This document shows positions 28,989 through 31,046 of a DNA stretch of 64,000 bases, piece by piece; within the stretch, counting starts at the first letter, position 1, and each line of letters opens with the position of its first letter. The position numbers were made by a program, and so were the translations under genes. Where the stretch lies: positions 224,001 to 288,000 of the forward strand of contig JAHQJS010000006.1 in NCBI GenBank assembly GCA_019057385.1, in the 5' to 3' direction. This DNA comes from Candidatus Borrarchaeum weybense. Its GTDB lineage: Archaea > Asgardarchaeota > Sifarchaeia > Borrarchaeales > Borrarchaeaceae. The notes below the pieces were generated by a model that saw only the letters and a list, made by a program, of their open reading frames with translations, was not told where the DNA came from and searched no databases.

Positions 28989-29516
28989 TTAGATAGGCAT
29001 AGAAGGCAAAAACTGATGCGCCAGTAATATAGTAAGTACAAAGAAAATTGCAACAATAATCCCTGATACCTTTAACCAATTTCTCTCATATTTTTCTGGT
29101 ATACCTCGAAGATCTCCAGGAGCTCCTCCTTTCAATCGTTGTTCAAACCATTTTGAAACGCGAGATCCAAAGGCTGATCCTGTAGGTGGAATTAAATCGA
29201 GGAAAAGATGCGAGCTATAACCGATGAAGAAAGCGGCTAAAAGAAACAAAACCCCGAACTCAAAACTCGTCAAAAAATAAAATACGAATAATACAGCAGG
29301 GATTAGAGGCGAATGAGTGATGGGAGATCGATGATACTTTATGCCAAAATCGAGATCCACATCGGGAGCATGAGAAGCCGCGATAACTACCAGATATCCA
29401 AGAACAGATCCGTTTATAGCTGCCAGTCGAATAACTCCACTACCAAAAAAGAAATATGCAAGAAAAAATACGGTAAACGCTATGCATGCCCAAAATTTGT
29501 GTTCAAATCTATTCAT
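28989..29516 (-). CDS. Membrane-bound metal-dependent hydrolase (YdjM/DUF457-like)
   Basis: PDVD, HRSPITHS and SHLFLD motifs; TM helices. Confidence 0.75.
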   Translation of the reverse strand: MNRFEHKFWACIAFTVFFLAYFFFGSGVIRLAAINGSVLGYLVVIAASHAPDVDLDFGIKYHRSPITHSPLIPAVLFVFYFLTSFEFGVLFLLAAFFIGYSSHLFLDLIPPTGSAFGSRVSKWFEQRLKGGAPGDLRGIPEKYERNWLKVSGIIVAIFFVLTILLAHQFLPSMPI

Positions 29517-30801
29517 AGAATCACCTCAAGAATATTCACTATGAAGTGGGGATAGGAATTGTGTTCTAAGCGAAATTCGGGTTAAGATCGTACAATCTTC
29601 TTTTTTAGCGTTTTGCGTTAGACGTTTTCCGGTTTTTAGACAATGCAGGCTTAAACGATTTTTTAGATTACCACCGATATAACACAACCCTAAGGTTTTA
29701 TGAGTTACGAGTGTTCCTTTTTTCAGCCCAAGTGATAGCGTACCACCATATCTTCTTTTTATGCCCCCTTTCGCGAATTGAAAACGATGTAACTGTCTCC
29801 TGTGAAATTGTAGCGGTGTTATATAGTAAATACTTATTGTGGTCGGAAATTTTGCTCTGGTTGTAGCGGCTGCCAGTACCCAGGCATCTACACAATGAGT
29901 TTCAAAGATAGGTTGTGATTTGCTCTTCTTTTTGTGCAATCCAAAGTGTTGTCTTAACTGCTGTGTCTCGTTCCCTTGTGCTAGTATCACATTTAATTTA
30001 AGTTTTTGTAACTCGCTATAGAAATACCACTTGCCCACTTCTAATGGGCTAAAATTAGTGTTCCATCTCTTATGATGTCTCTTTTTTGTAACTGCTTGAA
30101 TATCCTCTACCACCACGTTTTGGATAGGAATGATAGTGCAGAGTTGTTTGATGATCCTTAGTTTTACATCCCATCGTGCTCTGGTGGATGGTGGTAACCT
30201 ACGTTGATTTGCTATTCGGTTTTTCTTGTTTTTTCTACGGCGAGTATTCCTTTTTCGGCGTGCCTTCCGCGCATTTCGTCTTTGTTCGACCTTTCTTTTC
30301 ACCCAAGTTATCGCTTCTGACATGATATTGACTACCGTATCACCTGTACCAACGATTGAGAACCCTTCGTACTTCGTACCTGGATCTACTCCAATGGCGA
30401 GCGGTTGTGTGACGGGTATGTGTGGATCGAATTGTAAATGAAGATAAAAGATGCCTATTTTATTCCGTTTCTTGATGGCCTTTCCTTGAGCAATGAGTTT
30501 TCGAGCTTTTGCAGGTCGACACGGCATTAATGGAGTGCCATTTTTACTAACGACAGGTATTCTACCGATTGCGGTCTCCCTGTCAGAGTCATGTTTCCCT
30601 TCGCCAGGGTATATAGGACATAGTCTAGTACTATTGTTGCTAGACTTGGAATTAAGTGATTCTTCCGAAGCGGGCTGGACTAGGGAGGCATCCAACCATT
30701 CTTGTAGTCCTATACACGTAGTTCCCGAAGAACTGAGGCTAGTCAACTCTTGCGTTGGTATCACCATCCCATGCCCTGTCCTCTTGGACAGGGTAGCTGA
30801 C
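29517..30801 (-). mobile_element. IS200/IS605-family non-autonomous OMEGA element (omegaRNA + IsrB, no TnpA)
   Basis: One end begins GTCAGCTACCCTGTCC-AAGA-GGACAGGG (hairpin). The other end, CAATTCC...ATTCTTGAGGTGATTCT, abuts ATGAA (TAM-like). Confidence 0.85.
29526..30569 (-). CDS. isrB: IsrB (RRXRR/PLMP-domain RNA-guided RuvC nickase, no HNH)
   Basis: GTPLMPCRPAKAR, RuvC-I GVDPG, Arg-rich bridge helix, LPPS, RuvC-II VVEDI and RuvC-III HCVDA; no HNH; core about 347 aa. Start uncertain (ATC after GGGAGA; the frame is open to 30815). Confidence 0.85.
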   Translation of the reverse strand: MGRIPVVSKNGTPLMPCRPAKARKLIAQGKAIKKRNKIGIFYLHLQFDPHIPVTQPLAIGVDPGTKYEGFSIVGTGDTVVNIMSEAITWVKRKVEQRRNARKARRKRNTRRRKNKKNRIANQRRLPPSTRARWDVKLRIIKQLCTIIPIQNVVVEDIQAVTKKRHHKRWNTNFSPLEVGKWYFYSELQKLKLNVILAQGNETQQLRQHFGLHKKKSKSQPIFETHCVDAWVLAAATTRAKFPTTISIYYITPLQFHRRQLHRFQFAKGGIKRRYGGTLSLGLKKGTLVTHKTLGLCYIGGNLKNRLSLHCLKTGKRLTQNAKKEDCTILTRISLRTQFLSPLHSEYS

Positions 30802-30821
30802 AGAAACATCACCAAACAAAT
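30575..30821 (-). ncRNA. omegaRNA: about 20-nt 5' guide from the flank plus scaffold
   Basis: Scaffold motifs GTCAGC/GTTGAC pairing, TAGCCTCAGTTC-TTCG-GGAACTACGT, GGATGCCTCCCTAGTCC and GGCGAAGGG; guide about ATTTGTTTGGTGATGTTTCT. Confidence 0.8.
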
Positions 30822-31046
30822 TCATTTTTGAATTCATTTGTTGCTTAATTCGATTGATCTAATGCAGAAATTAAGTTATACCAAATATTTAACGTTTCTC
30901 ATAAACACATTGAATTGAAAAGTTCAGACCCCTCACACCTTTATAGTGGTATAAACCTTTAAAAGCAAAATTTGCTAGTCACAGTAACCACTCCAAAGAT
31001 TTAAGTAGTGATTCATGAAACTGGTTCTCTAGAAGTTTAATGAAAG

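Follow-up and report, generated by a model that had tools for sequence, protein, structure and literature searches.

The OMEGA (obligate mobile element-guided activity) elements, which include those of IscB, IsrB and TnpB, are the ancestors of Cas9 and Cas12 and use guide RNAs to avoid loss. Their expression and tolerance in gene-dense genomes are less clear. Among the closest described systems are the IscB and omegaRNA-only IS200/IS605 elements of Geobacillus stearothermophilus (ISGst). In these elements, the wild-type target-adjacent motif (TAM) of GstIscB is TTCAT, the omegaRNA is delimited by the right end (RE) of the transposon, and the orientation of the elements is biased to match that of the upstream gene, implying read-through from the host (Meers et al. 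2023, bioRxiv 10.1101/2023.03.14.532601). The IsrB orthologues use NTGA-type TAMs. The present analysis concerns a related element of the Asgard archaeon Candidatus Borrarchaeum weybense, located within a stretch of 64,000 nucleotides (assembly GCA_019057385.1, contig JAHQJS010000006.1, positions 224,001 to 288,000), which is referred to as a whole as the window. This IsrB-omegaRNA element is inserted 3′ of the target TTCAT, exactly between the 5′ untranslated region (5′-UTR) and the ATG of a YdjM-like host gene.

The last bases of the element form a Shine–Dalgarno (SD)-like motif placed directly before the host start codon. The preferred reading, to which a probability of about 0.65 is assigned, is that this OMEGA element is transcribed from the host and that the host gene is kept expressed through the SD encoded in the element end or through re-initiation.

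Insertion between a host 5′-UTR and its start codon

All window coordinates of the element and its flanks are read on the minus strand. The genome under study is designated G000, and G001 to G004 are four Borrarchaeota genomes of the same genus. The boundaries were taken from the start of the HEARO model, an alignment of four paralogues and the empty-site alleles of three relatives. The 5′ boundary is placed at position 30801 because position 1 of the HEARO model starts there, independently of an earlier note on this DNA that was made by a model from the letters alone. The element opens with GTCAGC at 30801, next to an upstream flank that ends ...GGTGATGTTTCT at 30802. Its 3′ end reads ...GAGGTGATTCT at 29517, and the downstream flank opens with ATGAAT at 29516.

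The host protein was searched in 60 relatives, and orthologues of 78–81% identity that align from residue 1 were found in the four same-genus genomes. In G004, a 40-nt flank identical to that of the window is joined straight to ATGAATAGG. The same junction (...TTTCT/ATGAAT) is found in G003 and G002 with 1–3 substitutions. The empty allele that the earlier note had predicted is thus present, exactly at the junction, in three genomes. The site is occupied in G001, where the same element is found at both junctions. The insertion took place without a target-site duplication, in keeping with an IS200/IS605-type element, and the empty alleles join flank and TAM seamlessly. As the N-terminus MNRFEHKFW is conserved in all five genomes, the ATG at the insertion is the true start codon.

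The flank that encodes the guide is the host 5′-UTR, including its native GGTGAT (30813-30808). The earlier note had described the guide as the host 5′-UTR and ribosome-binding site (RBS), and the same bases do precede the start codon in the empty alleles. Its native SD, GGTGA (30813-30809) 7 nt before the rebuilt ATG, agrees with the sequence, as does its observation that the isrB stop codon overlaps a new SD (stop TGA at 29528-29526, GAGGTGAT at 29527-29520). The ATGA(A) TAM that it proposed recurs in 18 of the 34 elements of the genome and equals the TTCAT TAM of Geobacillus IscB. The architecture used to call the guide, in which it is read from the flank, is taken from the IscB/IsrB literature. 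The features of the locus are as follows:

29517..30801, minus strand: whole non-autonomous IS200/IS605-type IsrB-omegaRNA element, 1,285 bp, with the RE at 30801 and the left end (LE) at 29517
30802..30817, minus strand: putative omegaRNA guide, 16 nt (up to about 20) of host 5′-UTR abutting the scaffold, placed by its position relative to HEARO model position 1 and by the same bases before the start codon in the empty alleles
30588..30801, minus strand: omegaRNA scaffold (HEARO, RF02033), in which the opening stem-loop corresponds to the transposon RE hairpin in reverse complement
29526..30566, minus strand: IsrB core open reading frame (ORF), running from the ATC conserved ahead of RIPVV as far as the stop TGA (29528-29526), based on PF14239, the 8DMB alignment and frame analysis
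29517..29560, minus strand: left-end terminus, with the degenerate LE hairpin region (about 29549-29537), the CTTG linker and GAGGTGAT (29527-29520), based on the alignment of copies
29512..29516, minus strand: TAM ATGAA, in which the host start codon is joined by the two opening bases of codon 2, based on the junctions, the empty sites and the same motif at most elements
28989..29516, minus strand: host gene for a 175-aa YdjM-family membrane protein, based on Pfam, on orthologues aligned from residue 1 and on a ratio of nonsynonymous to synonymous divergence of 0.14–0.21
28972-28100, minus strand: tetratricopeptide repeat (TPR) gene after the host gene, based on Pfam
28043-26655, minus strand: UDP-glucose dehydrogenase (ugd) gene after the TPR gene, based on Pfam
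30885..30892, minus strand: putative archaeal TATA box TTAAATAT, whose end is 83 nt upstream of the point of insertion, spotted by eye when the flanks were aligned and conserved across four of the five genomes

The TATA-like box is a possible host promoter for the guide, the omegaRNA, isrB and the host gene alike. In the flank of G001, approximately 130 nt upstream of the insertion (L041/L105), there are an extra 26 nt that resemble the start of the HEARO or right-end hairpin and are maybe the remnant of another element. The putative guide has one near-match elsewhere in the genome (G000:C5:17010-17025, minus strand; 15 of 16 positions). It is followed by TTAAGA and has no ATGA TAM, and it was set aside as probably due to chance, since on a rough estimate about as many matches would arise at random.

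The ORF carries a PLMP motif and an RRXRR domain (PF14239, E 2.6e-34), and this region aligns to the N-terminus of the IsrB of Desulfovirgula thermocuniculi (DtIsrB). This protein, 8DMB, is also the best match among solved structures (E 8.4e-49, colinear). The RuvC residues D/E/H/D are conserved, with GVDPG, VVEDI and THCVDA aligning to the DtIsrB motifs. The Pfam scan of the ORF returned no HNH family, and the DtIsrB alignment shows no HNH insertion. Taken together, these features identify the protein as IsrB and the RNA as its omegaRNA. TAM-dependent, omegaRNA-guided nicking of the non-target strand by this IsrB is predicted, the TAM deduced from the 34 junctions being the only indirect support. 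The HEARO match spans 30801..30588 (model positions 1-211) and, at 83.2 bits (E 1.1e-16), lies only just above the gathering score of 83; paralogues in the genome reach 135 bits.

No canonical start codon was found at the expected place of isrB, and the frame is open upstream to 30815. This applies to the family, as this copy (window 30566-30815) and its three paralogues have no ATG, GTG or TTG within approximately 35–70 codons upstream of the PLMP motif. Their frame is open for 71–98 codons across the entire omegaRNA, whereas the other two frames contain 2–10 stops. An in-frame ATG located about 30 nt inside the scaffold is conserved in three of the copies. In a second IsrB family of the genome the start is normal, a TTG that lies 13 codons ahead of PLMP.

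The first stem of the omegaRNA is the RE hairpin, and a similar RE hairpin is present in TnpB elements of the genome. The paralogues and the G001 orthologue have an intact LE hairpin, which this copy lacks. The sole Y1 transposase gene of the genome (PF01797) adjoins a tnpB gene, in an element that has a similar RE hairpin and a TTTAA-type TAM. The IsrB elements are therefore non-autonomous. In addition, 13 TnpB-2 loci (e.g., C4:113453 and C6:302592), the IsrB elements and the omegaRNA-only elements have a common LE hairpin and related RE hairpins. Their TAMs differ, TTTAT for TnpB-2 against TTCAT or TTTAT, and the whole resembles the mixed element network of Geobacillus.

Shine–Dalgarno-like left ends

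The 3′ end of the 16S rRNA reads ...GGATCACCTCCT. An SD match of at least five bases is found at −20 to −3 in 27% of 3,144 gene starts of a crude gene map, against a background of 6.6% further upstream. There are sharp peaks at the gene starts, with GAGGT at −11 and GGTGA at −11 to −9. This enrichment indicates that the archaeon uses SD sites. (The 16S match itself, G000:C5:332567-335232, spans 2,666 nt against a model of 1,478 positions and probably contains an insertion of about 1.2 kb, an intron or similar.)

The motif GAGGTGAT falls within the last 11 bases of the element, 3 nt from its boundary. It resides at −11 to −4 of the host ATG and is a perfect 8-nt complement of the 16S rRNA, in the preferred register of the genome. 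The predicted duplex with the anti-SD is −16.3 kcal/mol for this terminus compared with −8.9 kcal/mol for the native flank, whose GGTGAT is 3 nt further from the ATG. The same tendency is seen across the 34 elements of the genome with definable ends, the termini of which have a mean of −9.2 kcal/mol, with 62% containing an SD match of at least five bases. Gene starts, by comparison, have −5.6 kcal/mol and 27%, and random ATGA sites have −3.7 kcal/mol. The element-end RBS is thus on average predicted to be stronger than those of real genes. The guides of nine elements that sit on start codons are also SD-rich (−6.6 kcal/mol), as expected of genuine 5′-UTRs, the remaining guides having a mean of −3.5 kcal/mol.

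An alternative explanation is that the SD-like end is a transposition linker between the cleavage site and the LE hairpin, read by TnpA. Its complementarity to 16S rRNA would then be incidental, and the host gene would be translated in another way. The CTTG(C/A)GG linker is indeed common to the IsrB, omegaRNA-only and TnpB-2 elements, and other Asgard lineages (G005, G016) carry the motif at places other than gene starts. However, the 13 TnpB elements, which have the same LE hairpin and CTTGCG linker and the opposite gene orientation, have an anti-SD affinity at the random level (−3.6 kcal/mol, 0% with a five-base match). This comparison argues that SD-likeness is not simply a requirement of the transposase. 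Furthermore, the extension of the motif (GTGAT/GTAAT) lies in terminal bases that vary between families, and it converges on the 16S complement in three of them. The linker explanation is considered unlikely.

The use of the terminal SD by host ribosomes at this locus is less certain. The LE hairpin of this copy (29537-29549), canonical in G001, has been replaced by a clustered patch that leaves a stem of only 4 bp and carries a 1-nt deletion shifting the isrB stop codon. Because of the loss of this hairpin, this copy may no longer be excisable or mobilisable. Two alternative pairings of the patch are predicted, one with the SD (7 bp) and one around the AUG, in which TTCATAG (29545-29539) faces CTATGAA (29518-29512). 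This predicted sequestration is the main reason for caution on the function of the SD at this locus. In G001, the isrB stop is the TGA inside GGTGA. As the isrB stop overlaps the SD motif, re-initiation after isrB is also conceivable. The replacement SD of the earlier note stands as a property of the family, the termini being SD-rich and that of this copy lying in the preferred register; host ribosomes may use it at this locus.

The earlier note had also proposed that the insertion keeps the downstream genes translated. This is supported for the host gene, which shows no decay. The ratio of nonsynonymous to synonymous divergence (dN/dS) is 0.21 between the two occupied genomes, G000 and G001 (dS 0.86), and 0.12–0.24 in the comparisons with empty-site genomes. 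For isrB, the same pair gives a dS of 0.40 and a dN/dS of 0.15. The host gene and IsrB therefore both remain under purifying selection. The TPR and ugd genes downstream may also depend on the end-encoded SD. The divergence values bear on a further alternative, that the insertion shut off the YdjM-like gene together with the operon that follows, leaving the intact ORF as only a recent relic. The gene has been moved 1.3 kb away from its promoter, and folding is predicted to hide the SD of this copy in part. Nevertheless, the ORF is intact in two occupied genomes at the above divergences (host dS 0.86, element dS 0.40), with a dN/dS like that of the empty-site lineages, and silencing is regarded as highly improbable.

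The host gene of G001 is nearest to that of G003 (dS 0.20), which has an empty site. The site is therefore occupied in two genomes, G000 and G001, that are not mutual closest relatives by this gene, and the element is less diverged than the host gene. This pattern could reflect a seamless loss of the element from part of the lineages or, alternatively, more than one acquisition at this site.

Start-codon residence across the genus and flank-matching element ends

There are 36 HEARO matches in the genome, and both ends could be defined for 34 elements. These comprise four of the present IsrB family (67–77% mutual identity), 11 of the second IsrB family and 19 omegaRNA-only elements roughly 400 bp long. 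The TAM is ATGA in 18 of the 34; the others have ATAAA, GTGA(A) or one of a few single variants. Gene starts were taken from the crude gene map, with start-codon ORFs counted at a length of at least 100 aa. The earlier note had asked how often copies sit at start codons: nine of the 34 do so exactly, their TAM ATG or GTG opening such an ORF, along with six of the 18 elements with definable ends in the four relatives. Seven further elements of the genome lie at most 30 nt upstream of such a start. Thus, a quarter to a third of the elements of the genus reside exactly on host start codons, three cases being proven by empty alleles. These are the YdjM-like gene and the FKBP and Rad50 insertions, for which exact empty sites are also present in relatives. 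In the glycosyltransferase family 2 (GT2) case, the upstream region of the relative is non-homologous.

The start-codon ORFs encode YdjM, a glycosyltransferase, Rad50, a superfamily 1 (SF1) helicase, a helix-turn-helix (HTH) protein, HEPN, an FKBP isomerase and a zinc-ribbon protein. Seven of the nine have Pfam matches, several with domains that begin within the first residues. In the Rad50 case, a 1,532-bp IsrB element (G000:C6:824205-825736) precedes rad50 (821643-824204; L063). Judging by the sequence of the relatives, the ATGA at this site seems to combine the stop codon of one operon gene with the overlapping start codon of the next, and the upstream ORF would lose its stop codon and run into the element. 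Elsewhere, a near-tandem pair (G000:C4:705319-705994) consists of an omegaRNA-only element and, 37 nt further on, a complete IsrB element; another Asgard genome (L128, G016) also has a similar pair.

The SD-like terminus and start-codon residence are traits of the whole IsrB/omegaRNA population of the genus and not of this copy alone. A single-protein scan of genome contigs returned only Borrarchaeota records. Of 201 genomes of the phylum that were sampled, only 13 yielded RRXRR proteins, with the copies outside the genus too few to define their ends.

Start-codon residence could, in principle, be the result of pure survivorship. In this explanation TnpA inserts at any TTCAT/ATGA, intragenic insertions are lost, and no feature has evolved for start codons. 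An ATGA opens 1,436 of 3,395 crude genes (about 42%), an insertion before the ATG leaves the ORF whole, and the SD strength of termini is equal at start codons and at other sites. The frequencies are more difficult to reconcile with it. Gene starts account for 2.9% of all ATGA sites and for 12.1% of the ATGA sites that lie outside gene bodies, yet eight of the 18 elements with an ATGA TAM (44%) are at starts, an over-representation even against the 12.1% of non-disruptive sites (P = 6.5e-4 under a survivor-only null). In addition, cutting a gene from its SD would not be neutral unless the SD is replaced, and the termini are SD-rich. Survivorship without further adaptation is regarded as rather unlikely.

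A second pattern concerns the extreme termini. Five of the 34 elements, together with three of seven TnpB elements belonging to another family, have final bases identical to those that close the guide-side flank at the other end, flush with both boundaries. The loci with such matching ends (last 5–10 nt) are as follows:

G000:C8:111871-113149 (L002, paralogue B), C4:845762, C6:872756 and C4:705319: IsrB/omegaRNA elements
C7:194594, C4:898896 and C4:1153158: TnpB elements

The tract of paralogue B is 10/10, and its flank is native, as seen from the empty site in G002. It is therefore the end of the element that was overwritten. A target-site duplication was rejected for this locus, as the length of the left end is preserved and the tract is a replacement and not an addition. 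Similarity of flank and terminus was also rejected as a general rule: summed over the 34 elements it is borderline (P 0.05), and the signal resides in the tail of five.

It has been reported that IsrB nicks 8–11 nt upstream of the TAM. Nick-primed copying that keeps the resident strand between nick and TAM would leave such a tract. The matching ends may thus be scars of nick- or cut-primed RNA-guided homing, the 10-nt tract of paralogue B fitting the nick position. If so, they would amount to evidence from nature for the copying of an element into empty alleles by a nickase-only OMEGA system, and would give a read-out of RNA-guided homing from sequence alone in uncultured organisms.

These tracts raise the question of whether the terminal SD of this copy is itself a host SD region copied onto the element end during insertion or homing. 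The flank and terminus share eight of their last 12 bases, with a flush TTCT (P ~0.003), and paralogue B ends in the very 10 nt that natively precede its TAM. On the other hand, the terminus GGTGATTCT is also present in paralogue D and its G001 orthologue, and GGTGAT in paralogue C, where the flanks are unrelated. The native flank also has three bases that are absent from the terminus, which reads GAGG where the flank reads TTGG. As the terminus is common to paralogues at unrelated sites, the SD of this copy is element-borne and not a host copy, and the copying of a host SD is judged improbable.

A joint reading of the two patterns is that the IsrB/omegaRNA elements of Borrarchaeota are adapted to start codons and that the overwritten ends are homing scars. 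Such adaptation may rest on three properties: the target is ATG plus A, the last bases are an RBS in register, and host promoters drive the guides. In this way the elements could sit at the 5′ ends of essential genes (rad50, FKBP, glycosyltransferase) and leave them unsilenced. This broader proposal is put forward tentatively, as something short of probable.

A possibly low-cost element at gene starts and its relation to known systems

According to the preferred reading, that of a host-transcribed element which leaves its host gene expressed, a single RNA carrying the guide, the omegaRNA scaffold, isrB and the host gene would be transcribed from the host promoter. From this joint transcript the omegaRNA would be cut out and loaded into IsrB. 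Ribosomes would reach the host ATG through the end-encoded SD, or would re-initiate after the isrB stop located 9 nt upstream. The host gene would stay expressed, and the insertion would cost little. Finally, the ribonucleoprotein would nick the empty allele, consisting of the 5′-UTR and ATGAA, and so favour re-copying of the element there.

Several observations weigh against this account. The start-codon enrichment rests on a crude gene map and could come from selection after insertion as opposed to a property of the element. No five-base SD is present in 38% of the termini. The portion CTTGCGGAG of the motif is the linker common to TnpB left ends and may have a role in transposition. The SD strength of termini at start codons does not differ from that of the other termini (P 0.37). 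Maintenance of the SD at particular loci was rejected on these grounds, and the motif is best described as a family trait with no sign of locus-specific maintenance. The folding result is equivocal, the mean predicted probability that the SD is unpaired being 0.25 in this copy, compared with 0.67 in G001 and 0.32–0.50 in the empty alleles. No TnpA with a matching TAM was found in the genome. Transcription would read through from the host promoter. The 1,285-bp sense strand of the element contains no run of five or more T; avoidance of T runs was rejected as evidence for read-through, as the low T content explains their lack, and base composition accounts for the scarcity of T runs (11 observed against 16 expected).

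If the RBS works, the TAM doubles as the start codon and the guide is the host 5′-UTR, with host transcription gained at little cost to the host. The pattern may explain how such elements persist in compact genomes without silencing genes. If true, this would be a simple rule that is testable across all prokaryotes. It also matters for annotation, because the genes behind such elements look promoter-less.

The components of the locus are of a known kind, those of IsrB/omegaRNA IS200/IS605 elements, while the combination of start-codon residence and an end-encoded RBS appears new. In the literature on HEARO, IsrB and IscB in connection with start codons or RBSs, the arrangement is not described; the original HEARO paper was outside the scope of this search and may note ATGA sites. 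Comparable economies are known from other elements. IStrons, which combine a group I intron with TnpB, splice out of host transcripts. They likewise lower their own cost to the interrupted gene using host transcription. Unlike in IStrons, there is no splicing here: the gene is left whole by the choice of site, the TAM being the start codon, and the translation signals would come from the element end. Similarly, insertion sequences with outward promoters supply an expression signal to a neighbouring host gene. In the present case the signal is an RBS whose spacing to the start codon is fixed, and this start codon is itself the target motif of the element.

DtIsrB (8DMB; Hirano et al. 2022, PMC9581776) has in common with the present protein the PLMP motif, the RuvC D/E/H/D residues, the lack of HNH and an NTGA-type TAM. 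The two are about 35–40% identical by eye. They differ in that the gene described here has no canonical start at the homologous position and a frame that is open across the omegaRNA. The resemblance to the ISGst elements extends to the TAM, TTCAT being ATGAA on the nuclease strand. As in the ISGst elements, the omegaRNA lies upstream of the nuclease gene, is bounded by the RE and takes its guide from the flank. The ISGst elements are likewise mostly without a nearby tnpA and have ends in common with TnpB elements of the same genome. In contrast to ISGst, the present locus encodes IsrB, without HNH, and resides in an archaeon whose genome yielded no cognate TnpA. Start-codon residence and an SD-like left end are not described for ISGst in the available part of that source (Meers et al. 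2023).

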